27,201 bases of DNA, from the NCBI GenBank assembly GCA_048061075.1, contig JBGMRC010000002.1, forward strand, positions 1 to 27,201, in the 5' to 3' direction. The DNA is from a bacterium. Its GTDB lineage: Bacteria > BMS3Abin14. Of this stretch, positions 3 to 24,395 are shown in pieces. Position 1 is the first letter of the stretch; each line of letters starts with the position of its first letter. Position numbers and translations under genes: made by a program. The notes beneath the pieces were generated by a model that ran no database searches, was not told the DNA's origin, and saw only the letters and a program-made list of their open reading frames with translations.

Positions 3-797
3 GATCCGGTAGAAGTTCTACACTTTAACCGCAGCCTGGAAGAAGACGCTACCCACTATACCGGACAGAACTGCCTCGACTGCCACGACCACGCCGCAAC
101 AGTGGCCTTTGAACCTTCGGACTGTGACACCTGCCACGGTGACGGCGCCGGGAGCAACTGGCCGCAGACCGTTGCTACAACTGCCTCCATACATCCAGAT
201 CGCGCGGGGGCTCACGACAAGCACGTAACGGCGATAGAAACGGGCAACAGTTCCTGCAGAACCTGCCATCCCGGCAATCCTCCTGTCGGTCATCCGGACC
301 TGATCGCTACCGGTACTTCCCTGGCTGAACTCAGCCAGATGGATACCAACGGCGACAGCGTTGCGGATACCTGGCTTAGCACCTATATAAAGAACAGCAT
401 CGGCGCTACCGATACGGATGCCTATTATAATGTTGTTGCTCAGGCCTGCGGCAGCGTTGACTGTCACTCAGGAAGCACCACGCCTGACTGGTATAGCGGT
501 GGCCCCCTGGATTGCAACTCATGCCATTTGTCCCACCCTGGCACAGGCCAGCATAAAAAACACGCCAACACAAACATGAACTACTCCGAGTGCGACAATT
601 GCCACGGGGACGCCACGTGGTCTCCTTCCGGTAATGCTACGGGCGGCAGTGCCTACACAACCGGTGGTCCTGCAGGCAGCCCCCACAACGATGGTGTAAA
701 GACTCTCTACTTCCCTAATAATAATGCCATCTGGAACAGCCCCAACTGTACCAATGTGGACTGCCACCCCGACCCCGGGTCATACAAATGGTGGTAA
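3..797 (+). CDS. Multiheme c-type cytochrome, Geobacter-type CxxxxCH/CxxCH family (C-terminal part; gene starts upstream of the window)
   Basis: The frame is open from base 3 (DPVEVLHFNRSLEEDATHYTGQNCLDCH...), so the GTG at 102 is not the true start. The visible part has 5 CxxCH motifs (CLDCH, CDTCH, CRTCH, CNSCH, CDNCH) and 2 CX4CH motifs (CGSVDCH, CTNVDCH). Stop is TAA at 795-797. Confidence 0.92.
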   Translation, partial: DPVEVLHFNRSLEEDATHYTGQNCLDCHDHAATVAFEPSDCDTCHGDGAGSNWPQTVATTASIHPDRAGAHDKHVTAIETGNSSCRTCHPGNPPVGHPDLIATGTSLAELSQMDTNGDSVADTWLSTYIKNSIGATDTDAYYNVVAQACGSVDCHSGSTTPDWYSGGPLDCNSCHLSHPGTGQHKKHANTNMNYSECDNCHGDATWSPSGNATGGSAYTTGGPAGSPHNDGVKTLYFPNNNAIWNSPNCTNVDCHPDPGSYKWW

Positions 798-842
798 CTG
801 AGCGTTGCACAGTAAATGTTCGATTATTAGGAGATGGCTATA

Positions 843-3176
843 ATGTCGACCAGGCTGCTTAATAATATCCTGATGATGGTTCTCATCGCGACCCTTCTGA
901 ATGTGACCTCAAGTCACGGTCAAGAGGTGGTCAGGGATGAGTTCGAGAATTCGGGCTCTTCCACACAGCCTGTTCAGGGGATCCAGGGCTGGGGGTTCAC
1001 GCAGCGGACAGACGAGTTCGTCCTCGAGAATCCGGAGCTTGTGGATTACTCGATCAACCTGGGTCCGGCCGGGCAGGGGATCATCTCTTTTGACCTTATG
1101 AAGATCGAAGGGGACTTTTATGATGACCGGACGGTCTTTGCGCTTCTTGACCAGGATGAAGTACCACTCTTTGAAATGGAGATAGCGTGGAGCGCTGTCT
1201 TTGATCCAGATGTCCCAGTTGCAAACTTCAGCGGAAGGGCGTTCTACAGGGAAGGACTCAACATGTGGAGCCCATGGGTTCCACTTGACAATAAGGTCGA
1301 GCCCGGCCAGTGGGTGCACTTCGACATCGTGTGGAATGATGCCGATGAACGCTACTTTCTGTTTGTTGACAACCGTTTACAAAATCCCGGCGGCGACTAC
1401 ATTGACCACCGAACCGGCCAGGTGCAGGCCGATCCCAGGCTGGGAACTATAGCTGAAAGAATAGCCAGAGGGGAGGAGCCAGACTTCTTTGCAGGGAAAT
1501 TTGCGGATATCGCGCGGAGGGTTGCCATACTGCGCCTCGGTATACACACCGTCCCCAGTAATCCCGGTATAGGTACGTCGCCCCTTGCCAATGCTGTTCT
1601 TGACAACTTTTCCATCAGAGTGGGGCAGATGAAATTGATCTCCTCAGTTTCCCATAATGCCTTCTCCGTTGCCGGCTTTTCAGGGAGGCTGGTGGCTGGA
1701 GACACAATAACCGTTATCATGAACGGTGAGCCCGGCGGGCAGGCCACCTTTGATCTGGGTGACGGGATCACCACTGTGTCCATGGCCGAGGACCAGGCTA
1801 AGCCCGGCACCTATAGGGGAACCTACGCGGTAAAACCGGGTGACTATGTGGAATCAGGTACGCTCACTGGCCGCCTTGTAGGCAGACTGGGTCTTCGAGC
1901 TGTTCCGGTTGCCGCTACCAGAACCATCGACATCGACGGCACTACCCATTTTGATGTTAAGGCAAGTAACGACCTGATTCCCGCTGATGAAGAATCAAAG
2001 GCTGGTTTTACCGTAGTAGCGAGAGATGCCAACGATAAACCGGTTCGGGATCATGAACTTCTTCTCACCATGTCCACTACCGATGAGTACACAGGTATTG
2101 TCGGGGGAGGTGCATTTGCAGATATGGTGGGCGGTGAGATGGACGTCGACTGGGGCAGTGTGACTGACTCCTTTGGCGAGGTTTCCGCTCAATATATTTC
2201 CGGTTTCGCTGCCAAGACGGTCCTGGTAAGCGCAAAGGACATGGTTTCCGGCGATGTGGGTGTTGGTTATGTAAGGTCCTTCATTACCGGTACCGTAGAT
2301 GTTCTGGTGAAAAAGCCCCAGGCTGCGGCCCTGAGCCTCTCCGGGTCCATGGAGGTATCGTTGTCCAGGGATTGGCTCACTGCGGATGGTCATAGCCGTT
2401 CGCGCATAACAGCAGTGGTCAGGGACGAATCCGGGGACCTGGTTGCGGGTGAGCGGATCAGGTTCACTCTACTTGGTGATAATGGCTCCATAAAAGAGAT
2501 AAAGTCCCACACCGACTCTCGCGGCCGTGCTTTTGCCGATTACATAGCAGGAACTGTGATAGGTGAGGTTCAAATAGAGGTCCGTGACTTGACCGGCGGG
2601 CATGTAGCTGTGGTCTCCATCGAGCTTCGATCCGACGCTCCTGCAGAGATCGCCCTTACGGCTGAGCCCGGAGAGATATTCACCGATGACAAGACCGGTT
2701 CTGTGATAACCGCGAAGGTAAGTGACGCCAACGGCAACCCCAACTTCAACACTGATGTTCTGTTCGAAGTTGCCTCAGGCGGCGGTACCATGTCGGCGGA
2801 TAGCGCTGTAACAGATGAAAAGGACGGTATTGCCTCTGTTAATTTCCTTCCCGGCAGCGAGCCTGGTCTATCAACGATCAAGGCTACGATCATCAGCCGT
2901 GCCCCGACTGCCGATGAGGTGGCCGCTGCAGAGGGCGCCGTGTTCCTGTTTGGTTTGGATGATGACCCCGGTCGGCTTGAGGTGATTGAATGGCTCGCCG
3001 GGCCCGGTGATGAGGTAAGCGAAGGTCAGGACCTGGTTAAACTGGAAGACAGGCGTGGAACTGTCTATATGGTAAAAGCTCCCAGGGACGGTATTGCCTC
3101 GGTGTTCACGGCAGAGGAAGAGGACAGGGTAGAGTACGGTCAGACCTTGGGATACATTCTGCCTTTGGTAAAATGA
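843..3176 (+). CDS. Secreted multidomain protein: N-terminal LamG/ConA-like beta-sandwich, invasin/intimin-type Big_1 Ig repeats, C-terminal biotinyl/lipoyl-like domain
   Basis: The ORF runs 834-3176, but AGGAG at 829-833 is well spaced for ATG 843. Signal-peptide-like N-terminus (MSTRLLNNILMMVLIATLLNVTSSHG). WVHFDIVWNDADERYFLFVDN resembles LamG. Three Big_1-like units (...IPADEESKAGFTVVARDANDKPV; ...LTADGHSRSRITAVVRDESGDLV; ...IFTDDKTGSVITAKVSDANGNP). The last ~75 aa align by eye to lipoyl domains. Confidence 0.75.
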   Translation: MSTRLLNNILMMVLIATLLNVTSSHGQEVVRDEFENSGSSTQPVQGIQGWGFTQRTDEFVLENPELVDYSINLGPAGQGIISFDLMKIEGDFYDDRTVFALLDQDEVPLFEMEIAWSAVFDPDVPVANFSGRAFYREGLNMWSPWVPLDNKVEPGQWVHFDIVWNDADERYFLFVDNRLQNPGGDYIDHRTGQVQADPRLGTIAERIARGEEPDFFAGKFADIARRVAILRLGIHTVPSNPGIGTSPLANAVLDNFSIRVGQMKLISSVSHNAFSVAGFSGRLVAGDTITVIMNGEPGGQATFDLGDGITTVSMAEDQAKPGTYRGTYAVKPGDYVESGTLTGRLVGRLGLRAVPVAATRTIDIDGTTHFDVKASNDLIPADEESKAGFTVVARDANDKPVRDHELLLTMSTTDEYTGIVGGGAFADMVGGEMDVDWGSVTDSFGEVSAQYISGFAAKTVLVSAKDMVSGDVGVGYVRSFITGTVDVLVKKPQAAALSLSGSMEVSLSRDWLTADGHSRSRITAVVRDESGDLVAGERIRFTLLGDNGSIKEIKSHTDSRGRAFADYIAGTVIGEVQIEVRDLTGGHVAVVSIELRSDAPAEIALTAEPGEIFTDDKTGSVITAKVSDANGNPNFNTDVLFEVASGGGTMSADSAVTDEKDGIASVNFLPGSEPGLSTIKATIISRAPTADEVAAAEGAVFLFGLDDDPGRLEVIEWLAGPGDEVSEGQDLVKLEDRRGTVYMVKAPRDGIASVFTAEEEDRVEYGQTLGYILPLVK

Positions 3177-3626: not shown

Positions 3627-5432
3627 TTGAGGGTGGGAAGACAGTCTCTGAGCGTTCCGGTACGGGTGTTCGGATGTCTTATTTTCTCGATTCTGTTTCT
3701 CCCAGGTATCCTCCTGGCCGGAGTGCCGGGGTTTTCTATAGATAACTCCTATGAGCGGGAACAGGAATTTGTGGTCGATGACTGGGTTGTTACGGAGACT
3801 TTTGGCCAGGATTACACCTTTGACTGGGACGAGACCTTCAGTGACAGACTGGATGTGAATCTGGAGTTTAGGCTTACTATAGAAGATATTTTCAAATCCA
3901 ACGATGTGGATACCAAGGAAGTGACTCCCTCACTGGAACTGGACCTTTCAAGCATCATCTGGGATTTGGGATTCAGCGCCGAGGATACTATCGAATATAC
4001 GAACGAGTTTAACAAGGAACGAAAGGACGCTTTAGAGTTTAGCGCTGAATTGGACCTAGCTCCAGACTATTTACCCACCTTCAATGCAACATTACAGAAG
4101 CTTATCAACGAGCAGCAGAATCTGGAAGATACGAATGAGGAGAAAATAGACCTTATCACGACGTATGGATTCGGTGAGGTTATCACTCTGGATGCTTCCT
4201 ACAAAAGGGAGAAGCTGGATGACCGGCTGCTTAATAACAGCGACAAAGATCTCACGAGATGGGACTTTACGACGTCCTTTAACCAGCCCATGGCCCCCTC
4301 TTTGAAACTTAACATCGATACAACCCTGGAAGGAGAGACGGAAGATACTCTCAACAACTCAGGCCAGGTTATCCTTTCTGAGCGGTCCAGGACTCTGGAA
4401 AACAGGGCCAGGCTTACTCTAGAAACGTGGCCAAACATCAGTTCTGATCTTGAAATAACCGATGAACGGGAGTTGGTGGACGATACCGATACGATTAAAG
4501 TTGATTTCGATTTCAAGATCAGCCAGGAATTTCTTCCTATTGGAATCCTCACGGAAAGATTGGAGTTCGGAAGGGAAAGAGTAAAGAGCCCCATACCGCA
4601 GGATGATGTGAGAGACCTTGATATCGGGTTTACACTGGAATTCGCGGGCAACCCTTCAGATTATCTGGACTACTCGGTGAAACAGAGTCTTGATCTTACC
4701 GACTCGGAATTCGCCGATACTACAAAAAATACCGATACCAGGCAGCGGGATTTTGATCTTAGCATCACTATCACTCCTGCCAAAGACCTGAGCCTTGATC
4801 TTGCGTACAACAGGTCTACTGTGTACACAACAGGATCTGTTACAAGTGAGAGCAGGAGTTATAAAATTGAGCTGACCTACGAGGGGGAAGCCTTCGATTT
4901 TCCCAACCTCACCTTCAATCCTTCGGTGGAATTCTCGACGGATAACGACAGGGTCACCAACGAGACAACAGATAAACAGACCATCGACCTGGAGTTTACA
5001 TACACCTTCAATTTGCCCAAGGTCTTTGTTCTGGTGCTCGAACCGGGATATACTTTTGAGCGAACAGATGGGGTAACAGAAAATGTGGACCTCAAACTGG
5101 CATACGAAATGGCGTTTATCCTTCAACACGCCGACTGGGAGTTCTCAATTGAGAACGACGGAGAATATACGAATAACTTTGGGGCAGATGATGATTATAA
5201 CAACGACATCAGTGTCCAGATATCAGTTGGTCTTCTGGGCAATATACAGTTTGATGTGGAATACCAGTATCAGACCTCTGACGATAGTGATAACGAAGAC
5301 ACCCTTGAAGCCTCCGTGGACATGGAATTCGACAACGCGACTTTAAGTGTGTCCTACGAAAACGACAGGGCCTTCTCAACAGAGAAGGATGTGGTGAGGA
5401 CCTGGGAAGTTGAGTTCTTAATGGAATTCTAA
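3627..5432 (+). CDS. Large acidic outer-membrane beta-barrel protein (candidate porin of a porin-cytochrome conduit or export channel)
   Basis: TTG start with AAGGGAG at 3611-3617. Signal peptide (…FGCLIFSILFLPGILLA). Repeated amphipathic strands with alternating hydrophobic residues (e.g. LNLEFRLTIED, FSAELDL, YKIELTYE). Very D/E/T-rich. Ends ...RTWEVEFLMEF with a terminal Phe typical of BAM substrates. Confidence 0.75.
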   Translation: MRVGRQSLSVPVRVFGCLIFSILFLPGILLAGVPGFSIDNSYEREQEFVVDDWVVTETFGQDYTFDWDETFSDRLDVNLEFRLTIEDIFKSNDVDTKEVTPSLELDLSSIIWDLGFSAEDTIEYTNEFNKERKDALEFSAELDLAPDYLPTFNATLQKLINEQQNLEDTNEEKIDLITTYGFGEVITLDASYKREKLDDRLLNNSDKDLTRWDFTTSFNQPMAPSLKLNIDTTLEGETEDTLNNSGQVILSERSRTLENRARLTLETWPNISSDLEITDERELVDDTDTIKVDFDFKISQEFLPIGILTERLEFGRERVKSPIPQDDVRDLDIGFTLEFAGNPSDYLDYSVKQSLDLTDSEFADTTKNTDTRQRDFDLSITITPAKDLSLDLAYNRSTVYTTGSVTSESRSYKIELTYEGEAFDFPNLTFNPSVEFSTDNDRVTNETTDKQTIDLEFTYTFNLPKVFVLVLEPGYTFERTDGVTENVDLKLAYEMAFILQHADWEFSIENDGEYTNNFGADDDYNNDISVQISVGLLGNIQFDVEYQYQTSDDSDNEDTLEASVDMEFDNATLSVSYENDRAFSTEKDVVRTWEVEFLMEF

Positions 5433-5464
5433 ACGGATGAGTTTACTCGGAGAGTGAAAACTGA

Positions 5465-5484
5465 GACAGATAGATATATCTGTC
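5465..5484. other. Short perfect inverted repeat after the beta-barrel gene (hairpin or operator)
   Basis: gacagata-gata-tatctgtc: 8-bp stem, 4-nt loop, no U-tract. Confidence 0.45.
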
Positions 5485-5532
5485 AGGAAGAGTTGGGCCG
5501 AGCACGGAATTTTGTTGTGAAATCAGGTAAAA

Positions 5533-5548
5533 TGGCTCATTTTTTGCG
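5533..5548 (+). promoter_or_regulatory. Candidate sigma54 (-24/-12) promoter for the lipoprotein-NHL-TlpA-decaheme genes
   Basis: TGGCTCATTTTTTGCG: GG and GC separated by exactly 10 nt, with TTGC at -12, about 80 nt upstream of ATG 5626. Confidence 0.45.
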
Positions 5549-5625
5549 TTACGTCGGACAATTTAGTGAAGTGGCATTATTGCAGAATAAATGGTAGTGA
5601 TACTTCATCGTTCAAGGAGGACAAA

Positions 5626-6336
5626 ATGTTAAGAAGAGTCGCCCGGAAATCTGTTTTGAGCATTGCCGTATTTCTTGCCTTCGCTCTTGCCGGCTGCTCC
5701 GGTTCACCGTCAGTGAAGTCGATCAGCAAGCCGTCGGAGAGCAAGAGGCAATACCTTGGACTGAAGAAAGTAGCTATCCTGCCCTTTACTAATCTGGGCG
5801 GTGATAAAGGGGCCGAAGACCAGGCTGTGGATATCGTAAAGTTAGAGCTTAACTTGTTGGGTACTTTCCCGGAGGTAGAGAACCCTCTGTATGTAGCGGA
5901 TGTCTTCAAATCCCTGAAGATCAGGAAGCTTGACACGCTGGACCCGGAGACAGTCAAAAAACTGGGCTCGGAGATGGGGGTACAGGCGCTTCTTCTCGGT
6001 GATATCAATGCCTGGGGACTTGGGGAGGGCAGTGAAGCTGCCATGCACGTTTCCCTGACTCTAACACTTATCGACACTACTACAGGAAAGCTGCTCTGGG
6101 TCGGGAGCGGCTCACAGAGGGCAAGTTTCACCTGGGGCAGGGTTTTCGGTCTGAATGAAGGTCCCACCGATCTGGAGATCGGAAGAAAGGTAGTATCATC
6201 CCTGCTCAAGTCCATGTCCAAGGAGATCAAGCGAAGACGGGAAGCCGAAATGGTCAGAATAAAGGCGGAGGAGGCGGCAAAACTCAAGGCTGCCGCTGAA
6301 GCTGAGAAAAAGCGGCTGGAAGAACAGAAGAAATAG
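5626..6336 (+). CDS. Outer-membrane lipoprotein, PelC/GNA1162/CsgG-like alpha/beta fold, with a charged C-terminal coiled coil
   Basis: AGGAGG at 5615-5620 supports ATG 5626 (the ORF track starts at 5566). Lipobox LAGC. Motifs KVAILPFTN...LG..MGVQALLLGDI..W and VSLTLTLIDTTTGKLLWVGSG are typical of this fold. Tail EAAKLKAAAEAEKKRLEEQKK. Confidence 0.75.
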   Translation: MLRRVARKSVLSIAVFLAFALAGCSGSPSVKSISKPSESKRQYLGLKKVAILPFTNLGGDKGAEDQAVDIVKLELNLLGTFPEVENPLYVADVFKSLKIRKLDTLDPETVKKLGSEMGVQALLLGDINAWGLGEGSEAAMHVSLTLTLIDTTTGKLLWVGSGSQRASFTWGRVFGLNEGPTDLEIGRKVVSSLLKSMSKEIKRRREAEMVRIKAEEAAKLKAAAEAEKKRLEEQKK

Positions 6337-6345
6337 GAAAGAAAA

Positions 6346-7377
6346 ATGCCTTCGCATCGATTCTGCAGCATAGACCCCGCCTGGGCGGCCGGGTATCGTG
6401 GGTTTTTCAACTGGAGGACTTTCTCATTCCTGATTATCACGTTTTTTGTGATCGTTACAGCCTTGTTCCCTGGATCATACGCAACAGCCGACGGCGAAAT
6501 TGTCCTGCGTAATGACGCGGTTCCACTTTCCAGTGACCTCATAGTGGGACGTTTCGGAGTCGGCAAACTTTATTTTGATGATCCTTCCGATCTGGACACC
6601 GATGAAGAGGAGAATGTCTATATCCTGGATTCGGGAAATTACCGTATCCAGGTTATGGATGAGGATGGGGATTTCCTCAAGGAATGGGGTGGACGAGGCC
6701 TTGATGATGGCGAGTTCAGAGAGCCTGTGGCCCTGTCTCTGGATTCAGACAACGAATTTGTCTATATTCTGGACAAAGAGAGGTATCTTGTCCAGAAATT
6801 CGATCTGGATGGCAATTTTATCCTCTCTTTCGGGAAGAGAGGTATTAGAAAAGGCAGGTTCGATGATCCGGTTGACCTGACTATAGATTTTCAGGGTTAC
6901 ATCTATGTACTTGACCGTGACAGAGGCGCCATCATCAAGTTTCATTCCAGCGGCGCTTTTGTAGATGAATGGGGTGACATAGGCAGGAAGAGGGATGAGT
7001 TTTCCGATCCGGTTTCCCTTACTTTTTCCGATGTGCGTCTCGGCAGCATATATGTTCTGGACATTGGCAGAAAGGCGATCCTCAAGTTCGACAGGAAGGG
7101 AGACTACGAGGAAACAATACCACTGCTTCCTGAAGAGATTGCCGATGGAAATCCCGTTAAAATACGCTCAGACGACAGTGGAAACCTTTTTATCCTTGAA
7201 TCGAAACAGGGTAAACTGCTGAAATTAAAGGGATTCACATATAGTGTCTTCAGCCTTGTCAGTGAGAAGAACAGAATGGGAAAACCCAGTGGCCTGACCG
7301 TGGATGAAGAGGGTCGCGTCTACATCACTGACCTGGCCAAAAATAAAATAGTCAGGTACAGGATGGAACTGGAATGA
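6346..7377 (+). CDS. NHL-repeat six-bladed beta-propeller protein, exported or membrane-anchored
   Basis: Six NHL-like repeats (FDDPSDLDTDEEENVYILD, FREPVALSLD..VYILD, FDDPVDLTID..IYVLD, FSDPVSLTFS..IYVLD, GNPVKIRSDDSGNLFILE, KPSGLTVDEEGRVYITD). Hydrophobic N-terminal segment. Confidence 0.9.
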   Translation: MPSHRFCSIDPAWAAGYRGFFNWRTFSFLIITFFVIVTALFPGSYATADGEIVLRNDAVPLSSDLIVGRFGVGKLYFDDPSDLDTDEEENVYILDSGNYRIQVMDEDGDFLKEWGGRGLDDGEFREPVALSLDSDNEFVYILDKERYLVQKFDLDGNFILSFGKRGIRKGRFDDPVDLTIDFQGYIYVLDRDRGAIIKFHSSGAFVDEWGDIGRKRDEFSDPVSLTFSDVRLGSIYVLDIGRKAILKFDRKGDYEETIPLLPEEIADGNPVKIRSDDSGNLFILESKQGKLLKLKGFTYSVFSLVSEKNRMGKPSGLTVDEEGRVYITDLAKNKIVRYRMELE

Positions 7378-7814
7378 GAGAGGGTGTTTTGATGTTCCGT
7401 GTAACCAGACTACTTGTGTATTTTCTTCTGACAGTCGTAGTTACTTTTCTCACGGTGTTTGCGACAAGTTCCCTTTCCGCGGATGAAAGTGATCAGGAAA
7501 TGACACCCATCCCCATGATCAGTGGACTAGAGATGCTGAAAAAAGGGGATAAGGGACTTCAGGTGGTGGGTATTGCCATCGACGGTTCACCCATGAAAGG
7601 CGCCATCGAGGCCTTCATGAAGCAGGAGAACTTCACATTTACAGTTCTTATAGATCAACTTAATCCGGACGAGTCCTTCAAGGTTTCCGATCCATATAGA
7701 GTTGCGGGGACGCCCACCCTGTACATCATAGACAGTGAGTGGATCGTAAAGTTCGCCAACGTGGGCAGGACAACCAGGGAGAAGCTGGTAGAAGCTCTCA
7801 ACAGTATTCTCTAA
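7374..7814 (+). CDS. TlpA/redoxin-like thioredoxin-fold protein lacking the N-terminal strands and the CxxC active site (possibly an internally deleted gene)
   Basis: The C-terminal half is TlpA-like (DKGLQVVGIAID..., YRVAGTPTLYIID with cis-Pro, G.TTREKLVEAL). It has an N-terminal signal/TM segment and no cysteine in the whole ORF. The start may be ATG 7392. Confidence 0.75.
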   Translation: MREGVLMFRVTRLLVYFLLTVVVTFLTVFATSSLSADESDQEMTPIPMISGLEMLKKGDKGLQVVGIAIDGSPMKGAIEAFMKQENFTFTVLIDQLNPDESFKVSDPYRVAGTPTLYIIDSEWIVKFANVGRTTREKLVEALNSIL

Positions 7815-7838
7815 GAAAAAGCGGCTTCTGGTCCGATA

Positions 7839-9176
7839 ATGAGGAAAGCCCGTCAGCCCCATCAGAGCATAGTACAGCTTTTAATTACGGCGTCTTTACT
7901 GCTTATTATTGTCTATACAGCAGTCCCCCGGCAAGCCACCTCTGCAATAATTTCAACAGGTAAAAGAGCAATACCTTTCTCAGGTGTAGGTCTCAATAAT
8001 GAAAAGATCGATATTGAGCCTCTCATCGGCAAGGACGGGAAGGTTGCCAAGGTCATGAAGGGATATGAAGAAGAAGAAGAGCTTAAGTGGCTTCACAAAT
8101 ACATTGAAGCCCTGGTGAGCGAGACACCGATTACGCAACTTGCGGGAATAGGTGAGGAGGACGAATTCGAGATCCTCTTTCCTACTAACTTTACCAAGAC
8201 ATTTCAGGATTCCATATATGTAATTGGCATGACTCCTGAGAGCGGAGTCAAATTGACTTTAAGCCTTAACGGAGGCAGCAGGCAGGAAATAGTCTCTGGA
8301 AGGGAAATCTTCTATTTCAGGACCCCGGTTTCTCTGGGGAGCAACTATATCGAAGTCTCCAGGACCGGCCCGGACGGCAAAAAGACCAGCAGAGCAATCG
8401 TTCTCTTCCGTGAACCCAAGATGGGAAAGGGATTTGAAAGCGAGTTCCCTGTCTTCAAATTCCACATCAGGGAAAATGAGGAGAAATGTAAAAAATGCCA
8501 TGAGGTGGAACCACCCCAGACAACCGACAGAAATTTCATGATGATCACCCAGAGGTGTATGGACTGCCACAAGGAGTTGGCCGACAAGAACTACGTCCAC
8601 GGACCTATCCCTGTGGGCGGGTGTGCCCCCTGTCACGATTTCGGGTCTCTTCCTGCCCGGTATGAGCTTTTTACAACAGGATCCGATCTGTGTTACGGCT
8701 GCCACCAGGAAAAGCAGGAGGAGTTTGCCAAGTCCTTCGTTCACGGTCCTCTGGCGGCGGGCTTATGCTCGATCTGTCACAGCCCCCATGGCTCCAATGA
8801 GAAGTACAACCTCCGCCTTCCTCAGGGACAGATGTGTACAACCTGTCATCAGAAGATAAGGGAAGAGTCAGTACGCTCCAATCCCCACAAGCCCTTTGAT
8901 GAAGGCGCGTGTGCCGGCTGCCATAACCCCCATTCTTCCAATAACCCCGAATTCTTTCTGGAAGGTATGGGAGAGGATCTGTGCTTTCAATGTCATAATG
9001 AAGAAATAATGGAGGGTCATCGACATCCGGTGGGCGTTGTCCCCAATCATACTTTTCCGGGGATGAAATTAACCGAACTGGGTGAATTGATGTGCCTCTC
9101 ATGTCATAATCCTCATGCTGGAGATTCAGAAGCTCTGCTGCCCTCTAAAGGCTGTGCAGCCTGCCACGCTTATTAG
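7839..9176 (+). CDS. Decaheme c-type cytochrome (paired-CXXCH/cytochrome c3-like family) with an N-terminal non-heme Ig-like domain
   Basis: Signal peptide. Ten CxxCH motifs: CKKCH, CMDCH, CAPCH, CYGCH, CSICH, CTTCH, CAGCH, CFQCH, CLSCH, CAACH, with the HGP..G.C..CH.PH pattern of the doubled-CXXCH family. A ~200 aa heme-free N-terminal region has a beta-sandwich pattern. Confidence 0.93.
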   Translation: MRKARQPHQSIVQLLITASLLLIIVYTAVPRQATSAIISTGKRAIPFSGVGLNNEKIDIEPLIGKDGKVAKVMKGYEEEEELKWLHKYIEALVSETPITQLAGIGEEDEFEILFPTNFTKTFQDSIYVIGMTPESGVKLTLSLNGGSRQEIVSGREIFYFRTPVSLGSNYIEVSRTGPDGKKTSRAIVLFREPKMGKGFESEFPVFKFHIRENEEKCKKCHEVEPPQTTDRNFMMITQRCMDCHKELADKNYVHGPIPVGGCAPCHDFGSLPARYELFTTGSDLCYGCHQEKQEEFAKSFVHGPLAAGLCSICHSPHGSNEKYNLRLPQGQMCTTCHQKIREESVRSNPHKPFDEGACAGCHNPHSSNNPEFFLEGMGEDLCFQCHNEEIMEGHRHPVGVVPNHTFPGMKLTELGELMCLSCHNPHAGDSEALLPSKGCAACHAY

Positions 9177-14982: not shown

Positions 14983-15513
14983 GTGACAAAAACCGCCGAA
15001 AGAATAGCCGAAATCGCGATCGTCGCTCTTCTCGTCTTTCTCGGGATTCAGTTTCTCCCGAGTCGGACTCCCACGACCGAAATATCCATCAATATACTGG
15101 CAGGAGCCAGGGTAAAATCCATGGATCCGGTTGAATCCGCATACTTCAAAAAGGAGCTTGCGCAGGCAAGGCTGGTCGTTGACGGTGACGGCGATGCGGC
15201 CGATATTTTAGAAGAGCTTAAGAAGAAGTATCCCGGCCGCCACGAGGTCTGGGCCCTTTCGGCCCGTTTTCTGGAGGTCGAGGGAAAAAACCTGGAGGCG
15301 CTTTCACACTATGCTCGCGCGGTGCGTCTTAACCCCAACTATATAGAAGAGGATTCCCCCATTTTTCTCGGCCACAGGATAAAGAGTCTGACTAATAACG
15401 TTTTGGAGGACCTGATATTAAAAAAGAGGAGATCCGGGCTTTCACCCGGGGAATCGGAGTACCTTAAGATAGCCTACTTTCTCCGTCGGCGTATGGCAGG
15501 GGGTTGTGAATGA
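14983..15513 (+). CDS. Membrane-anchored TPR-like hypothetical protein with a C-terminal ...AGGCE
   Basis: N-terminal TM (IAIVALLVFLGIQFL). TPR-like helix pair (VWALSARFLEVEGKNLEALSHYARAVRLNP). ATGA overlap with yedE. Confidence 0.75.
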   Translation: MTKTAERIAEIAIVALLVFLGIQFLPSRTPTTEISINILAGARVKSMDPVESAYFKKELAQARLVVDGDGDAADILEELKKKYPGRHEVWALSARFLEVEGKNLEALSHYARAVRLNPNYIEEDSPIFLGHRIKSLTNNVLEDLILKKRRSGLSPGESEYLKIAYFLRRRMAGGCE

Positions 15514-16571
15514 AGTGGCTCAAAGGTGACGGTCTTCTCATAATGGCCAGCGGCCTTGCCCTTGGGTTTTTCGGGGCCGCGCTTGTCTTCTGGGGGAACC
15601 CTGCCAACTCAGGGATCTGCATCTCCTGTTTTACGGAGAACCTGGCCGGTGCGCTTGGACTGCACGCCAATACCCGCATGGCCTATCTCAGACCTGAACT
15701 TGTGGGGTTTATTGCGGGGGCTTTCCTCGTGGCCCTCGCTGGAAAAGAGTTCCGACCTCGGGCTGGCAGGCTTCCGGTTCACGGATTTATCCTCGGTGTT
15801 TTTCTCATTGTCGGTTCTTCCGTGTTCATGGGGTGCCCCATAAAGGTAATACTCAGGCTCGCTGCGGGTGACATGACGGCTCTGGCCGGTTTAGGCGGGC
15901 TGGCGGCCGGAATTTTCATCGGAATCCGCTTCCTGAAATCCGGCCTGGACCTGGGGGACGAGACTGCCCCGTCCGCACCCTTTCAGGGTGCAATAGTGCC
16001 GCTCATCTTTATCGCGCTTTTCATCCTTTCCCTGGCGGTTCCCGGACTGCTTATCAGGGGGGAAACCGGTCCCGCTGCCCATGCAGCACCCGTGGCAATA
16101 TCCCTTTCTGCCGGACTTCTGATAGGCGCACTGGCCCAGAGGTCCCGTTTCTGCGTTGCCGGGAGCTTTTCAAACCTGTTTCTGGCAAGGGATTGGAGCC
16201 TCATGAGGGGGTTGCTGATCCTTCTTGTTTCAGCGACGGCGGTCAACATCTACCTGGGTTTTTTCAGGATGGGGATGATGGACCAGCCCGGCTCCCATCC
16301 GGATCATTTATGGAACGGCATGAGCATGCTTCTTGTGGGTTTTGCGTCCGTGCTGGCAGGAGGCTGCCCCTTCCGTCAGCTGGTTCTGGCGGGCGAAGGT
16401 CTCGTTGATGCTTCAGTTGTCATAGTCGGTATGGTGGTGGGAGGCAGCATTGTTCATCTATGGCAGATAACCAGCACTGCGGCCGGACCGACACCCGCGG
16501 GGAAAGTAGCGGTCCTCCTGGGATTGATTTACTGTTTCGCAGTAGTCAGGTTCCACAGAAGGGAGGGTTGA
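15510..16571 (+). CDS. yedE: YedE-family putative selenium/sulfur transporter (YeeE/YedE)
   Basis: GNPANSGICISCF..N.AGALGLH...YLRPE..GF..G; two GCP motifs (GCPIKVILRL, GGCPFRQLVLAGEG); QRSRFC; multiple TM segments. Confidence 0.88.
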   Translation: MKWLKGDGLLIMASGLALGFFGAALVFWGNPANSGICISCFTENLAGALGLHANTRMAYLRPELVGFIAGAFLVALAGKEFRPRAGRLPVHGFILGVFLIVGSSVFMGCPIKVILRLAAGDMTALAGLGGLAAGIFIGIRFLKSGLDLGDETAPSAPFQGAIVPLIFIALFILSLAVPGLLIRGETGPAAHAAPVAISLSAGLLIGALAQRSRFCVAGSFSNLFLARDWSLMRGLLILLVSATAVNIYLGFFRMGMMDQPGSHPDHLWNGMSMLLVGFASVLAGGCPFRQLVLAGEGLVDASVVIVGMVVGGSIVHLWQITSTAAGPTPAGKVAVLLGLIYCFAVVRFHRREG

Positions 16572-16716
16572 AGATCCTCAGTAGAAACCCGGACACTCTG
16601 GCCGCCGAATCGGGATTTGGGCTCACCTTGCCAAACAGGCCTGCGGATGGTATCAGTTCGCAGGGAAACACTGTGGGATGCCCGATCCGCAATGCCCCGC
16701 CGGAGTGTAAACCGTT

Positions 16717-17892
16717 ATGACACGCAATAAATTCGTATATCTGAATAATGCAGCCACGAGCTGGCCAAAGCCCGAACAGGTAATTGAGAAAGTGTTATGG
16801 GCCTTGCGGGAGCTTTCCTCCACCCCCGGAAGGGCGGGGTATTCGGCCCTTCAGGGTGAACGGGAGATATTCGAGACAAGGGAGGAGGTGGCGCGGCTTA
16901 TCGGCGCCCAGGACAGTTCGCGGATAATATTTACCTCCAACGCCACACAGGCACTGAACCTTGCCATCACGGGTTTTCTCAGGGAGGCCTGTCACGTAAT
17001 TACGACCTCCATGGACCACAATTCTATTGTAAGGCCCCTCGCCAGAGCTGAAGATGAAATTGGTGTGGAGGTGACACGCGTTCAGGCCGACGAAAAAGGC
17101 ATGGTCGGGGTGGGCGCGGTAACAGAAGCGATCACTCCCCGAACCAGACTGATCGTTCTGACCCATGCATCCAATGTCGTCGGATCCATACAACCCGTGG
17201 AGGAAATATGCGGTGCACTGGGAACCAGCGATGGGGTTCGGCCGGTTGTGCTGGTAGATGCCGCTCAAACAATTGGTGTTCTTCCACTGAATGTGGCCAA
17301 AACGGGGATCGATCTGCTAGCCGTACCGGGTCATAAATCCCTGTATGGACTTCAGGGAACAGGCTTTCTGTACATTGCTCCGGGAGTGGATCTCGTACCC
17401 ATTATTGAAGGAGGTACAGGAGGGCAGTCAACCCTTGTCAGGCAGCCGGAGGTACTCCCGGAAAAGTTCGAGGCCGGCACTCCGAACACGCCGGGAATCG
17501 CGGCGTTGGGAGAGGCCATCCGTTTTATACATTCACGGGGGATCGACAACATCAGAAACCACGAACAGAAGCTTATTGAGATCCTCATTGAGGGTCTTTC
17601 GAAGATCCAGGGGGTTGTTCTGTATGGGCCCGCCTCTCCCGATGAGCGGGTAGCAGTCCTTTCCTTTAACGTAAAAGATCTTGATCCTGCCGAGGTGGAG
17701 TCGTTTCTGGAGCAGACCAGGAGCATTCAGTTACGAGTTGGCCTGCACTGTTCTCCCATGTCCCACAGGACCATTGGAACATTCCCTGAAGGTACTGTTA
17801 GGGTGAGCCCCGGGATTTTCAGTACAGAAGAGGATGTCCTTTCCCTCGTGGAGGGGGTACGGGAGCTTCAGAAGTTCAGGAGGAAAGATTGA
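16717..17892 (+). CDS. Cysteine desulfurase/selenocysteine lyase family, class V aminotransferase
   Basis: YLNNAATSWPKP; FTSNATQALN; THASNVVG; DAAQ; PLP lysine in PGHKSLYG; FEAGTPN; catalytic loop RVGLHCSP. Confidence 0.92.
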   Translation: MTRNKFVYLNNAATSWPKPEQVIEKVLWALRELSSTPGRAGYSALQGEREIFETREEVARLIGAQDSSRIIFTSNATQALNLAITGFLREACHVITTSMDHNSIVRPLARAEDEIGVEVTRVQADEKGMVGVGAVTEAITPRTRLIVLTHASNVVGSIQPVEEICGALGTSDGVRPVVLVDAAQTIGVLPLNVAKTGIDLLAVPGHKSLYGLQGTGFLYIAPGVDLVPIIEGGTGGQSTLVRQPEVLPEKFEAGTPNTPGIAALGEAIRFIHSRGIDNIRNHEQKLIEILIEGLSKIQGVVLYGPASPDERVAVLSFNVKDLDPAEVESFLEQTRSIQLRVGLHCSPMSHRTIGTFPEGTVRVSPGIFSTEEDVLSLVEGVRELQKFRRKD

Positions 17893-18215
17893 ACGCTGAT
17901 CCAGGATCCTCTCGGGAAACCTCCTCAAACTCCTGTGTGGCTGTGTTTAAAACGACCCACCTGACCCTGAAGGCGGAAAAAGCGCTCAAAGATACCGGAG
18001 TCGAGCACCGTACAGTCATGAAGCCGCGGAAGATAAGCAGTGACTGCGGCCTCGCGATACGGCTGGATCCCTCCGATGTGGACAGGGCGAAGGATGTTTT
18101 TCTCAGCTCTGCCTGCCTGCCTGCCAGGATCTTTCACCTGGTTGGCAGGGAGTGGGAGTGTATGATGGAAGTGGATTCTGAGAACCTTTCAGGAACAGTG
18201 ATCCGGGAGTGGTGA
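17889..18215 (+). CDS. DUF3343-family protein (selenium/sulfur-cluster associated)
   Basis: F.TTH.TLKAEK.LK..G......KPRKISSDCGLAIR matches the DUF3343 pattern. TTGA overlap with the desulfurase stop. Confidence 0.8.
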   Translation: MNADPGSSRETSSNSCVAVFKTTHLTLKAEKALKDTGVEHRTVMKPRKISSDCGLAIRLDPSDVDRAKDVFLSSACLPARIFHLVGREWECMMEVDSENLSGTVIREW

Positions 18216-20108: not shown

Positions 20109-21902
20109 ATGGCCGCAGCGCGATTAGGTGAGATGCTGGTTAAAGCCAACCTGATCAGCGAGGATCAGCTTAAACAGGCCCTTGAAGAACAGAGTAAATC
20201 CGGTGGCAGGCTCGGCTATAATCTGGCGAAGCTCGATATCATGGAAGAAGGCGATATCGTTGCCTTTCTGAGCAAGCAGTATGGAGTACCCTCTATAAAC
20301 CTTACCGAGTTCGAGATCGATTCCAATATCATAAAACTGATTCCGGGAAAGACAGCCAAGAAATATCAGCTTATTCCTGTTAGCAGAACCGGCGGTACCC
20401 TGACGCTGGCAATGGCGGATCCTACCAACGTTTTCGCCCTGGACGATATCAAGTTCATGACCGGCTACAACGTTGAGCCGGTTGTGGCATCCGAGACCGC
20501 CATCGAAGACTCCATCATGAAGTACTACGAGTCGGGGGGATTCGGTGGGGGCAAGGCATCCATCGACGCAGCCGAATTCGATCTCAGTGAGCTGGACGGA
20601 GGTACATTCGACGGGGAGATGGAAGCGGGCCCTGTAATGGACGTGGATGAATTCGACAACCTGGTCAAGGGTGCCGTGGACGAAGTCGAAGTCGTGGAAG
20701 ATATTCAGGATGATATCCTGTCTGGTGAGGTGGACGCGCCCATCGTAAAGCTTGTTAACGGTGTCCTCATAAAGGCCTTCAAGATGAAGGCCAGTGACAT
20801 TCATATCGAGCCCTACGAGAAGATCATGAGGATACGCTACCGCCTGGATGGTGTCTGCAAGACCATGATGAACCTCCCCCTCAAGATCCGCAACGCGGTG
20901 ATCTCCCGCGTAAAGATCATGTCCAAACTGGACATCGCCGAGAGACGTCTTCCCCAGGACGGCCGGATCAAGATGAAACTCGGCCGACGCGCCGAGGTGG
21001 ATTTCAGGGTTTCAGTGCTTCCGACCCTTTTTGGTGAGAAGGTTGTCCTCAGGCTTCTGGATAAATCAACCCTTCAGCTCGACATGACGAAGCTCGGATT
21101 CGAGAAGCTGGCTCTGGGGGAGTTCAAGGAGGCTATTCACAAGCCCTACGGCATGGTACTTGTCACGGGCCCCACAGGCAGCGGGAAGACGACTACTCTT
21201 TACTCCGCGCTGGCGGACCTGAACCAGGAAGATGTGAATATCATGACGGCTGAAGATCCTGTTGAGTTCAACCTTATGGGTATAAACCAGGTGCAGATGC
21301 ACGATGAGATCGGGCTGAACTTCGCCGCTGCCCTGAGATCTTTCCTTCGCCAGGATCCGGATATTATCCTCGTTGGAGAGATCCGTGACTACGAAACGGC
21401 CGAAATAGGGATCAAAGCCGCCCTTACAGGACACATGGTGCTGTCGACCCTGCACACTAACGATGCGCCCAGCACGATCAACAGGCTGCTTAATATGGGT
21501 GTTGAGCCGTTCCTGGTGGCTTCGGCCGTTATCATGGTTGTCGCCCAGAGGCTGGCGAGAAAGGTCTGCGACTCATGTAAACAGGTTATCGATGTCCCCG
21601 CCAAGGCTATGGAAGATATCGGCTTTACGAAAGAAGAGGTCAAGGAGGGCATCACCTGTTATGCCGGCGAGGGCTGCAACACCTGCGGTGGTACAGGCTT
21701 CAAGGGCCGGGTAGCCCTGTATGAAGTCATGTTTGTGAATGATGAGATAAAGGATGTGATCCTTCAGGGAGGGACTACATTCGAGATAAAGGAAGCCGCG
21801 ATTCGTGCCGGAATGATGACCCTGAGAATGAGCGGTTTACATAAGATAAAAGATGGTGTAACGACTATTGAAGAAGTTCTCAGGGTTACCTTCGGAGATT
21901 AA
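20109..21902 (+). CDS. pilB: Type IV pilus extension ATPase
   Basis: N-terminal MshEN-like RLGEMLV...; ASDIHIEP; ERRLPQDGR; Walker A GPTGSGKT; LRQDPDIILVGEIRD; HTND; Zn-binding CxxC...CxxC (CDSC, CNTC); GRVALYE. Confidence 0.97.
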   Translation: MAAARLGEMLVKANLISEDQLKQALEEQSKSGGRLGYNLAKLDIMEEGDIVAFLSKQYGVPSINLTEFEIDSNIIKLIPGKTAKKYQLIPVSRTGGTLTLAMADPTNVFALDDIKFMTGYNVEPVVASETAIEDSIMKYYESGGFGGGKASIDAAEFDLSELDGGTFDGEMEAGPVMDVDEFDNLVKGAVDEVEVVEDIQDDILSGEVDAPIVKLVNGVLIKAFKMKASDIHIEPYEKIMRIRYRLDGVCKTMMNLPLKIRNAVISRVKIMSKLDIAERRLPQDGRIKMKLGRRAEVDFRVSVLPTLFGEKVVLRLLDKSTLQLDMTKLGFEKLALGEFKEAIHKPYGMVLVTGPTGSGKTTTLYSALADLNQEDVNIMTAEDPVEFNLMGINQVQMHDEIGLNFAAALRSFLRQDPDIILVGEIRDYETAEIGIKAALTGHMVLSTLHTNDAPSTINRLLNMGVEPFLVASAVIMVVAQRLARKVCDSCKQVIDVPAKAMEDIGFTKEEVKEGITCYAGEGCNTCGGTGFKGRVALYEVMFVNDEIKDVILQGGTTFEIKEAAIRAGMMTLRMSGLHKIKDGVTTIEEVLRVTFGD

Positions 21903-21953
21903 TTCAGCAACGGACTGCAACTGAACTGATCGATATTTTTTTGGAGGTGCTTT

Positions 21954-23147
21954 ATGGCACAGGGTACGGGACAGGGACCGGCAGCCTCCGGGAGGGAAGG
22001 GGCTGAATTATCCGGAAAAACTACCAATATTCACCAGCTCCTTAAATTCATGGTGGAAAACGATGCCAGCGATCTCCATATAACACCGGGAACGCCCCCA
22101 CAGCTGAGAGTTGACGGGAAGCTCAGGCCGCTTAATGTGGATATGATGGGACCTGCTGAGACGAAAAAGGTAGCCTACAGCCTTCTGACCGATGCGCAGA
22201 AGCACACTTTCGAAGAGGAAAGGGAACTGGATTTCTCCTTTGGTGTAAAAGGGCTGTCCAGGTTCAGGGCAAATATGTTCATGACCCGGGGTTCGGTGGG
22301 TATGGCCATCCGTACGATCCCCTTCGAGACCTGGACCTTCGAAGAGCTGGGCTTGCCTCCGATAGTCGAAGAACTTACGAAGAAACCCACTGGTCTTGTT
22401 CTTGTAACGGGGCCCACAGGGAGCGGTAAGTCAACGACCCTTGCGGCGATGGTGGATCGAATAAATACTTCCCGGAACGAGCACCTCATCACTATCGAGG
22501 ACCCCATTGAATTTCTCCATCCCCATAAGAACTGCGTGGTGAACCAGCGTGAGGTGGGCTCCGATACGGATTCTTTCAGGAAGGCACTTAAATACATCCT
22601 CAGGCAGGATCCCGACATCGTCCTGATAGGTGAGATGAGAGATCTGGAAACGATCGAAGCTGCACTGAAAGTGGCCGAGACGGGCCACCTGGTGTTTGCC
22701 ACGCTGCATACCAACGGTTGTGTCCAGACCATTAACCGGATCATCGATGTATTTCCTCCCTATCAGCAATCCCAGGTCCGGGCGCAGCTCTCCTTCGTCC
22801 TGGAAGGTGTTCTTTCCCAGACCCTCCTTCCAAGGAAAATGGGTGGGCGCATGCTGGCCTTGGAGATAATGATCCCCAATGCAGCAATTCGCAACCTGAT
22901 CCGAGAAGACAAGGTACATCAGATCTATTCCAGTATGCAGGTTGGGCAGACAAAGTACGGTATGCAGACCATGAACCAGTCCCTCCTGGACCTCCACCAC
23001 AAGGGTGTTGTCCACCTTGATACTATCCTTGGCCGAACCACTAACCCGGAGGAGCTGCGCCAGATGCTCAGCCAGGCCGGAGTCAATCTAACCGAGGTAA
23101 GCGGCTCAACTGTGAGGGTCGAAAGTCCCGCCGGACCACGGCGGTAG
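21954..23147 (+). CDS. pilT: Type IV pilus retraction ATPase
   Basis: ASDLHI; GPTGSGKST; TIEDPIE; QREVG; LRQDPD; GEMRD; AETGH; AIRNLIRE motif. Confidence 0.97.
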   Translation: MAQGTGQGPAASGREGAELSGKTTNIHQLLKFMVENDASDLHITPGTPPQLRVDGKLRPLNVDMMGPAETKKVAYSLLTDAQKHTFEEERELDFSFGVKGLSRFRANMFMTRGSVGMAIRTIPFETWTFEELGLPPIVEELTKKPTGLVLVTGPTGSGKSTTLAAMVDRINTSRNEHLITIEDPIEFLHPHKNCVVNQREVGSDTDSFRKALKYILRQDPDIVLIGEMRDLETIEAALKVAETGHLVFATLHTNGCVQTINRIIDVFPPYQQSQVRAQLSFVLEGVLSQTLLPRKMGGRMLALEIMIPNAAIRNLIREDKVHQIYSSMQVGQTKYGMQTMNQSLLDLHHKGVVHLDTILGRTTNPEELRQMLSQAGVNLTEVSGSTVRVESPAGPRR

Positions 23148-23175
23148 TGATCCCGTTAAATCGGGGAGGTAACTG

Positions 23176-24387
23176 ATGCCTGTATTCAAGTGGGAAGCTC
23201 GGACAAGGCAGGGAGATATAAAGAAGGGTGAGTTGGAAGCCCAGAATACAGAAGCTGTCCACTCAGCCCTGCGCAGACAGGGGCTCAGCCCCATCAAGGT
23301 CAAGGCCAAGCCGAAAGAGATCAAGATAAATATCCCCGGACTGCGCGGCAAGAAGATAAAGGAAAAGGATATTGTCGTCTTCACGCGACAGTTCGCGACC
23401 ATGATCGATGCCGGACTGCCCTTGGTCCAGTGTCTCGAGATACTTGCCGGACAGGCTGATAACAAGATGCTGGGGAGCACGCTTTCCAATATCCAGTCCG
23501 ATGTTGAGGGTGGAGCCTCCTACGCTGAAGCACTGGAAAAACACCCCAAGGTGTTTGATACGCTTTATGTGAACATGGTGGCCGCGGGGGAGACCGGCGG
23601 TATTCTCGATACTATCCTGAACCGTCTGGCCGTCTATATGGAGAAGGCTATTGCTCTGAAGAAGAAGGTTAAATCCGCTATGGTCTATCCCCTCTCCATC
23701 CTTGCAGTCGCTGTGCTGGTGGTGGCTATCCTCATGGTATTTGTTATCCCCAAATTCGCGGATATGTTTATCGGCTTTGGAGGAGAGCTGCCTGCTATCA
23801 CTCAGATAGTGATTAATATCAGCCATTTTGCGGCGAGTTGGAAGATGGGTGTGGTGGTGGCCGGTTTTTTCTTTTTTGTATTTATCATGAAGAGATATTA
23901 CGGCACCGAGAATGGCCAGAGGAGGATCGACCGCATTTTTTTAAGGCTCCCTGTGTTCGGTATGCTCATCCGGAAGGTCTCAGTGGCAAAGTTCACCCGG
24001 ACCCTCGGGACAATGCTCTCGAGCGGTGTGCCCCTGCTCGATGCTCTGGAGATCTGTGCCAAAACTTCGGGAAATAAAGTGGTAGAGGACTCTGTCTTCT
24101 ACACAAAACAAAGCATCAGTGAAGGTAAGACGGTAGCCGAGCCCCTGGAGGAGACAGGGGTATTTCCCCCGATGGTTGTTCAAATGATCAGCGTGGGAGA
24201 AGCTACTGGTGCCCTTGATGCCATGCTCAGCAAGATCGCTGATTTCTACGACGAGGAAGTAGACACGGCTGTGGATGCCCTTACCTCGTTAATGGAGCCG
24301 ATGATGATGGTCTTCCTCGGGGGCGCCATCGGTTTCGTGGTCATCGCGATGTACCTGCCGATCTTCAAGATGGCCGCACTGGGCTAA
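23176..24387 (+). CDS. pilC: Type IV pilus inner-membrane platform protein
   Basis: FTRQFATMIDAGLPLVQCL; GETGG.LD; AMVYP; SSGVP; GEATG.LD.ML.KIADFY; EP.MMV...AMYLPIF. Confidence 0.97.
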   Translation: MPVFKWEARTRQGDIKKGELEAQNTEAVHSALRRQGLSPIKVKAKPKEIKINIPGLRGKKIKEKDIVVFTRQFATMIDAGLPLVQCLEILAGQADNKMLGSTLSNIQSDVEGGASYAEALEKHPKVFDTLYVNMVAAGETGGILDTILNRLAVYMEKAIALKKKVKSAMVYPLSILAVAVLVVAILMVFVIPKFADMFIGFGGELPAITQIVINISHFAASWKMGVVVAGFFFFVFIMKRYYGTENGQRRIDRIFLRLPVFGMLIRKVSVAKFTRTLGTMLSSGVPLLDALEICAKTSGNKVVEDSVFYTKQSISEGKTVAEPLEETGVFPPMVVQMISVGEATGALDAMLSKIADFYDEEVDTAVDALTSLMEPMMMVFLGGAIGFVVIAMYLPIFKMAALG

Positions 24388-24395
24388 AGGAAGAT

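Follow-up and report, generated by a model that had tools for sequence, protein, structure and literature searches.

A lysine-less lipoyl-type domain at the C-terminus of an exported Ig-repeat protein encoded beside multihaem cytochromes

Why does a protein with an export signal end in a domain of the type that carries lipoate or biotin in the cytoplasm, and what may such a domain do next to multihaem cytochromes? The question is raised by the first 27,201 nucleotides of contig JBGMRC010000002.1 (assembly GCA_048061075.1, lineage BMS3Abin14), here called the window. One of its genes encodes a protein of 780 amino acids, P0001, with an N-terminal jelly roll, a stalk of immunoglobulin-like (Ig) domains and a C-terminal lipoyl-like domain. 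A first-pass annotation, made from the DNA letters alone, had described the end of this protein as a lipoyl/biotinyl domain without its lysine on a secreted, invasin-like stalk. The domain is homologous to the carrier domains of E2 enzymes and of the biotin carboxyl carrier protein (BCCP), it lacks the modifiable lysine, and its gene is paired with a multihaem cytochrome gene in all related loci with upstream DNA.

Homology and fold of the C-terminal domain

The translation of positions 2940-3176 is VFLFGLDDDPGRLEVIEW...GYILPLVK*, the C-terminus of the open reading frame (ORF) 834..3176. With the whole protein as query, the Pfam family Biotin_lipoyl (PF00364) matches residues 717-775 with 21.8 bits, just below the gathering cut-off of 22.1 bits. 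It rises to 24.2 bits when only residues 690-780 are scored, and a six-frame search of the genome gave 23.4 bits. Among the C-termini of the family, 82 of 85 match PF00364. The borderline score of the window protein is settled because searches of a representative library, with a family profile and by fold agree. Residues 695-780 were compared with 1.8 billion representative proteins and retrieved their own family first, followed by tandem E2 lipoyl domains with the ETDK motif at whole-library E-values down to 2.5e-9. A family profile, the alignment of 85 homologous C-termini, matched the PDB entries 7b9k (Escherichia coli E2p, E=6e-26) and 9y7v (E=8e-23), with a best single-domain score of 46.5 bits. 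An AlphaFold2 model of the domain, built from the family alignment, had a predicted local distance difference test (pLDDT) value of 88.4. In Foldseek comparisons, it matched BCCP 2d5d with a template modelling (TM) score of 0.81 and a root-mean-square deviation of 1.7 Å, and the lipoyl domains 1iyu and 1ghj with TM scores of 0.80 and 0.75. The range over BCCP and lipoyl domain matches was 0.75-0.86, and in the AlphaFold DB clusters the model matched lipoyl-binding domains of E2s. Residues 702-776 are truly homologous to the lipoyl-biotinyl carrier domain of E2 and BCCP; chance similarity is ruled out by the profile, representative-library and fold searches. The first-pass annotation had let its case hang on a profile match to the biotinyl/lipoyl family. 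This match is present, and the C-terminal lipoyl/biotinyl-type domain stands by Pfam, family profile and AlphaFold2/Foldseek.

The carrier function of such domains depends on a lysine at the tip of the beta4-beta5 hairpin, in the motif E-T/S-D-K-A or M-K-M. HMMER alignments place the modified lysine of ETDK domains at R741 (nt 3054-3056). The corresponding column is variable over the 85 homologues, with R in 26, S in 13, A in 9, D in 7, K in 5, H, V and N in 4 each, and others. The arginine before it, R740, is conserved in 64 of the 85. The family consensus of the 85 C-termini contains no lysine in the domain, and none is conserved anywhere in it; the MKM biotinylation motif is absent from the domain. 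Five members have a lysine at the canonical column, for example the Deferrisoma protein (LEGRKAS) and P0056 (DIDKVE). The replacement of the lysine, seen before as EDRRG in the window protein, is hence located at the exact column and extends to a position without a fixed residue in the family. The domain functions as a lipoyl fold, not as a lipoyl carrier, and in the window protein a cofactor role can almost be dismissed. The net charge of the domain (-10) was rejected as a functional clue: the whole protein is also acidic, and distant members are near neutral.

The host belongs to a small candidate phylum of 16 species genomes in one family, 10 of them at least 90% complete. The E2 catalytic domain (PF00198) was found in 0 of the 16 genomes, and so was LipA above cut-off. 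These organisms thus preserve a lipoyl-type domain although no lipoate metabolism is apparent in them. Among the PF00364 matches of the host genome, only two ORFs are of BCCP size, and one ORF has the size of a BirA ligase. An origin of the domain by recent copying of an E2 of the host was rejected in view of these two ORFs and of the lack of E2 in the whole phylum.

Protein family and its cytochrome partner

The full-length model (pLDDT 87) resolves the chain into a signal helix (residues 4-22), the jelly roll (30-263), an Ig domain (269-368), three Big_1 domains (372-493, 505-599 and 605-687), a helix (693-700) and the lipoyl-like domain (702-776), whose hairpin strands comprise residues 733-739 and 744-748. 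As a whole, it resembles strings of Ig domains in FdeC (4e9l), invasin (1cwv) and InvD (5ldy). Pfam confirmed the three Big_1/Invasin_D3 stretches (84.5 bits) that had been claimed for the stalk. The LamG domain claimed with them stands at the level of the family only, and one Ig domain has to be added. Pfam has no match in the jelly-roll region of the window protein itself; Laminin_G_3 is matched there by 10 of 24 family members, and the jelly-roll family profile matched a pentraxin (3flp, E=7e-4). No NCBIfam model covers the whole protein. The signal peptide has a basic n-region, a hydrophobic core and a likely cleavage site between SHG and Q, and sequence inspection revealed no lipobox in it. 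An alternative start at 843 yields a form of 777 amino acids, which is the version in the public protein collection. Nearly all homologues start with a basic, hydrophobic signal peptide of the A-x-A type without a lipobox, in agreement with the secretion proposed at first; in all cases this is a prediction from the sequence. The features of the window are listed in Table 1.

Table 1. Features of the window around the gene of the exported protein and of the module downstream of it
Feature	Position	Strand	Remarks
Multihaem c-type cytochrome, C-terminal 264 aa, cut by contig start	3..797	+	5 CxxCH, 2 Cx4CH, TIGR01904
Gene of jelly-roll + Ig + 3x Big_1 + lipoyl-like protein (P0001, 780 aa)	834..3176	+	predicted exported
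Sec-type signal peptide, residues 1-29	834..920	+	read from sequence
N-terminal jelly roll, concanavalin A / LamG / pentraxin type, residues 30-265	921..1628	+	
Stalk: Ig-like domain 266-370 and Big_1/Invasin_D3 371-495, 496-600, 601-690	1629..2903	+	
Conserved linker helix, residues 691-701	2904..2936	+	PTxEExxAAxG
Contiguous lipoyl/biotinyl-type barrel-sandwich hybrid domain, residues 702-776	2937..3161	+	
Beta-hairpin tip E738-D739-R740-R741-G742	3045..3059	+	in place of E-T-D-K-A
Conduit module	3627..9176	+	adjacent but separable
Porin-like barrel, 601 aa	3627-5432	+	
LpoB-like lipoprotein	5566-6336	+	
NHL propeller	6346-7377	+	
Thioredoxin-like protein	7374-7814	+	
DmsE-like decahaem cytochrome	7839-9176	+	

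The family comprises more than 50 full-length homologues with 56-83% identity from NCBI, JGI, ENA and Logan assemblies. Distant homologues of ~1000-1300 amino acids combine fn3, Big_1 and Biotin_lipoyl domains; one of them originates from the cultured Deferrisoma camini. In total, the fusion was found in over 80 homologues, which come from independent assemblies. This recurrence across the four collections excludes a chimera or assembly artefact, the case of a fusion confined to one assembly that the first-pass annotation had held against itself. The jelly roll varies most within the family, with a mean pairwise identity of 23%; the values are 49% for the Ig domain, 58-67% for the Big_1 domains and 64% for the lipoyl-like domain. 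As identity rises along the chain, the strongest constraint lies at the C-terminal end. The domain is conserved in homologues down to ~35% overall identity and in several phyla, and the charged motifs LEDR, APRDG and AEERDRVEYG are preserved in it. Its place is always the extreme C-terminus, with at most ~20 residues beyond. A divergent subgroup with the motif EYTVGRS...EYWD (P0066, P0067, P0070, P0071 and P0077; L022, L025 and L029) has a proline-rich tail past the domain that ends in ...PRRR-COOH. This tail may be a sorting or anchoring signal.

A maximum-likelihood tree that included 68 canonical lipoyl/biotinyl domains placed all Big_1-linked domains in one clade (100/99) on a long stem. 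This clade also takes in one fragment of 85 amino acids that had been entered among the canonical domains. A single clade on a long stem fits a single recruitment of the domain. Its sister is a stand-alone metagenomic protein of 78 amino acids, P0148, which has ETERG for ETDKA and thus no lysine. P0148 has no signal peptide. One branch of the family with ~795 amino acids (P0075-P0097; L005:4010-6385) is without the domain: the proteins retain the linker helix and stop after it and one strand. They end in ...AVTDY[KNE]FF, an aromatic C-terminus that recalls the beta-signals of outer-membrane proteins.

Annotation pipelines already flag the architecture. PF00364 is precomputed on many homologues, and several of them were named 'biotin carboxyl carrier protein' by JGI, a recurrent mis-annotation. 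The searchable literature yielded no paper on this architecture and none with Big_1 and Biotin_lipoyl together. A search for Ig-like domains with multihaem cytochromes led only to an unrelated selenoenzyme, and a peat preprint contained nothing relevant. The initial statement that the architecture is undescribed thus holds for the searchable literature and fails for the annotation pipelines.

The gene preceding the partner gene on the same strand codes for a multihaem cytochrome in 17 of 17 related loci with upstream DNA. The survey included the window (3-3176) and the loci L002, L003, L004, L005, L019-L033, L040 and L041. The upstream cytochromes are usually giant, with 1187-2674 amino acids and 19-46 CxxCH motifs. 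They have Sec signal peptides and no lipobox. The window preserves the end of one such gene, and the TIGR01904 match in it is a CxxxxCH/CxxCH domain. In Deferrisoma camini, two such pairs of cytochrome and partner follow each other in tandem. The pairing spans the candidate phylum, metagenome-assembled genomes (MAGs) of Deltaproteobacteria/Thermodesulfobacteriota, a MAG labelled Nitrospirae and Deferrisoma camini. The position of the gene beside multihaem cytochromes, noted at the outset, is confirmed, with the cytochrome end upstream and the DmsE-like decahaem cytochrome downstream. The invariant pair of a giant cytochrome and an Ig-stalk gene is a more interesting lead than the domain itself, and it is a marker for giant-cytochrome systems in metagenomes.

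Most partner cytochromes end in ...CH[RN]x(8-20)GWN[KR]VTPW-COOH, with examples in L003 (4792-9942 and 13601-21622), L004 (2341-8847), L005 (3-3908), L021, L023, L024, L027 and L041; the window cytochrome ends in ...CHPDPGSYKWW. A docking motif at the cytochrome C-terminus that tracks the lipoyl-like domain was considered and rejected, as GWN[KR]VTPW occurs with domain-bearing and domain-less partners alike. Genes for beta-propellers of the BNR/sortilin type are located just upstream of the giant cytochrome in L004 (482-2242), L041 (16521-18284) and L003 (664-4874); in L021 (11536-12861), such a gene comes right after the partner gene. The propeller may be a third member of the cytochrome-partner unit.

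Possible roles of the domain

On balance, the domain is probably a modification-free protein-binding module on the partner of giant secreted multihaem cytochromes. In this reading, a single fusion would have joined a carrier domain to an exported Ig-repeat protein, and the cofactor role would have been lost later. The protein is predicted to leave the cytoplasm through Sec, so that the folded domain would never encounter a lipoate or biotin ligase. The domain would then be a putative module for interactions, placed at the conserved end of the stalk protein close to the cell, and the variable N-terminal jelly roll may represent the distal or specificity end. We infer that the ligand is most likely either the cognate cytochrome or a second copy of the domain, because the cytochrome is the only invariant genomic neighbour; the barrel or the lipoprotein encoded downstream would be less likely ligands. 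The docking or oligomerisation role that the first-pass annotation had proposed likewise stands as a hypothesis. Several observations weigh against a binding module. The tip of the hairpin is a poor candidate for the contact, because its apex residue is hypervariable. The conservation gradient along the chain is open to other explanations. The domain-less branch of ~795 amino acids also pairs with giant cytochromes, so the domain is dispensable for the core pairing.

A more specific arrangement is possible, and we put it forward tentatively. The cytochrome and its jelly-roll/Big_1 partner may form an unrecognised two-gene unit, distributed over several phyla, in which the stalk would hold or present the cytochrome on the surface of the cell and the lysine-less domain would specifically clasp the stalk to its cognate cytochrome or to the cell. 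To our knowledge, there is no settled answer in extracellular electron transfer (EET) to the question of how such non-lipoprotein cytochromes stay at the cell surface. If the clasp were true, it would help to explain the surface retention of non-lipoprotein cytochromes with ~20-46 haem-binding motifs. A carrier domain of the central metabolism would have been exapted into EET hardware, in a lineage without lipoate metabolism.

Homo-oligomers of the stalk proteins built through the domain, in the way the lipoyl domains of membrane fusion proteins (MFPs) pack side by side in rings, are rather unlikely. The fold is identical to that of MFP lipoyl domains, and some of the 85 C-termini match Biotin_lipoyl_2 (12) and HlyD_3 (8) weakly. 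The high conservation regardless of the gene neighbourhood also fits a self-contact. However, the domain is contiguous and has no alpha-hairpin insert, and its top matches in sequence and fold are all carrier domains, with no MFP among them. The isolated E2 lipoyl domains 1ghj, 1iyu and 1qjo were solved as single-chain NMR structures, which reflect a monomeric state.

The downstream genes suggested another contact, a docking of the stalk onto the neighbouring outer-membrane barrel, the LpoB-like lipoprotein or both, by which the cytochrome-partner pair would be anchored to a porin-cytochrome conduit. Genes for barrel, lipoprotein, NHL propeller, thioredoxin-like protein and decahaem cytochrome follow the partner gene in the window, in L004, L017 and L018 and on contig C66 of genome G011. 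The layout of the window with this module is fully syntenic in L004 and on G011 C66. A porin-like protein of 611 amino acids is encoded near a distant homologue in L021, and the conservation of the C-terminal end would match an anchor that is itself conserved. Yet the domain is well preserved in the genomes G005 (100% complete) and G012 (97%), in which no homologue of the barrel or the lipoprotein was found at any place, and in an extra copy on G011 C69, which has neither homologue beside it. The domains of these copies have 58-66% identity. Downstream of the pair in G005 are OYE, TrkA and TrkH. Conversely, G002 has the barrel module and no partner protein. In Deferrisoma, the 23.6-kb locus examined contains no such barrel. 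Since the conduit module can be separated from the partner gene, the domain probably need not serve as a dock for the barrel. The barrel and the lipoprotein, which the first-pass annotation had suggested as partners, are unlikely to be obligate ones, and an anchoring of this kind is improbable. The LpoB-like lipoprotein has homologues with one in-frame TGA each in G003 (C85:902-1663) and G001 (C33:115078-115809); the TGA may be an artefact of the start region, the mark of a pseudogene or a recoded codon.

The domain would hardly be an evolutionary leftover, that is, a stable C-terminal cap without a binding role. Its loss in one branch of the family and the hypervariable residue in place of the lysine are in line with such a cap. 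The conservation equals that of the Big_1 core and reaches homologues with ~35% identity in several phyla, and the charged motifs persist at places that the fold alone would leave free to vary. These observations make a cap very unlikely. It is extremely improbable that the domain still carries a cofactor, be it lipoate, biotin or another acyl group bound to a lysine, in spite of the five members with a lysine at the canonical column and the BCCP names given to some homologues, in view of the arginine in the window protein, the variable column, the lack of any conserved lysine in the domain, the missing MKM motif, the Sec signal peptide and the 16 genomes in which neither E2 nor LipA was found.

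In the window, a histidine kinase and a sigma-54 regulator are encoded next after the DmsE-like decahaem cytochrome. Positions 15510-18215 code for a Sulf_transp membrane protein, a class-V aminotransferase of the cysteine desulfurase or selenocysteine lyase type and a Se/S carrier-like protein, a small group for sulfur or selenium trafficking. From 20109 to 27201 follow, in this order, pilB (MshEN and T2SSE domains), a gene for a pilT-like ATPase, pilC (T2SSF), pilS (6TM_PilS kinase) and pilR (sigma-54 regulator); the set is cut by the end of the window. The type IV pilus locus of Geobacter has its genes in this order, too.

Comparison with known systems

The closest relatives of the domain are the lipoyl domains of E2 and the biotinyl domain of BCCP (PF00364). 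They share sequence homology, a contiguous barrel-sandwich hybrid of eight strands, the GD.V and P..G turns and a tryptophan ahead of the first turn. The differences concern function and context. At the hairpin tip, the modifiable lysine of the carriers is replaced by R741. Carriers are cytoplasmic or reside in an organellar matrix, together with their cognate ligase and E1/E2/E3 or carboxylase partners, whereas the window protein has a signal peptide. E2 lipoyl domains sit on flexible linkers rich in alanine and proline; the window domain follows an Ig stalk and the conserved short helix of residues 691-701. An E1, E2 or E3 context is missing for the window protein.

The lipoyl fold of periplasmic adaptor proteins or MFPs (HlyD, AcrA, MacA, CusB) is without lysine and has a structural role outside the cytoplasm. 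It is the established precedent for a lysine-less lipoyl fold beyond the cytoplasm. MFPs already show the principle, so the reuse of the fold alone is an incremental finding; if the clasp were true, the window domain would be a further clear example of a cofactor carrier turned to structural use outside the cell. In MFPs, an alpha-helical hairpin interrupts the lipoyl domain and beta-barrel domains lie next to it, whereas the window domain is contiguous and terminal. The window model has no coiled coil, and no MFP was among the top PDB matches. By Pfam counts, the window family is nearer to the carriers, with 82 of 85 C-termini for PF00364 against 8 for HlyD_3 and 12 for Biotin_lipoyl_2. An MFP-type domain was ruled out by the PDB profile, the fold and these counts, which all point to the carrier type.

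The tandem Big_1/Invasin_D3 rod is shared with the inverse autotransporters invasin, intimin and FdeC. These have an N-terminal beta-barrel translocator of 12 strands, with or without a LysM domain, and a C-type-lectin tip at the C-terminus, all of which are lacking in the window chain. It has the jelly roll at the N-terminus and the lipoyl-like domain at the C-terminus instead. The genomic partner differs as well: it is a cytochrome and not a system for a host-cell receptor.

In gene content, the barrel, the NHL propeller, the DmsE-like decahaem cytochrome and the giant cytochrome of the window resemble the Mtr and Pcc porin-cytochrome conduits and the Uet and OmcE/OmcS clusters. Comparable sets of barrel, propeller and cytochrome appear in passages on Uet (PMC10734462) and OmcE (PMC13712944). 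Within the passages of these two papers that were searched for Ig-like, invasin and lipoyl, an Ig-stalk or lipoyl-like partner is not mentioned. The cytochrome-partner pair of the window family differs from these EET clusters in that it also occurs alone.

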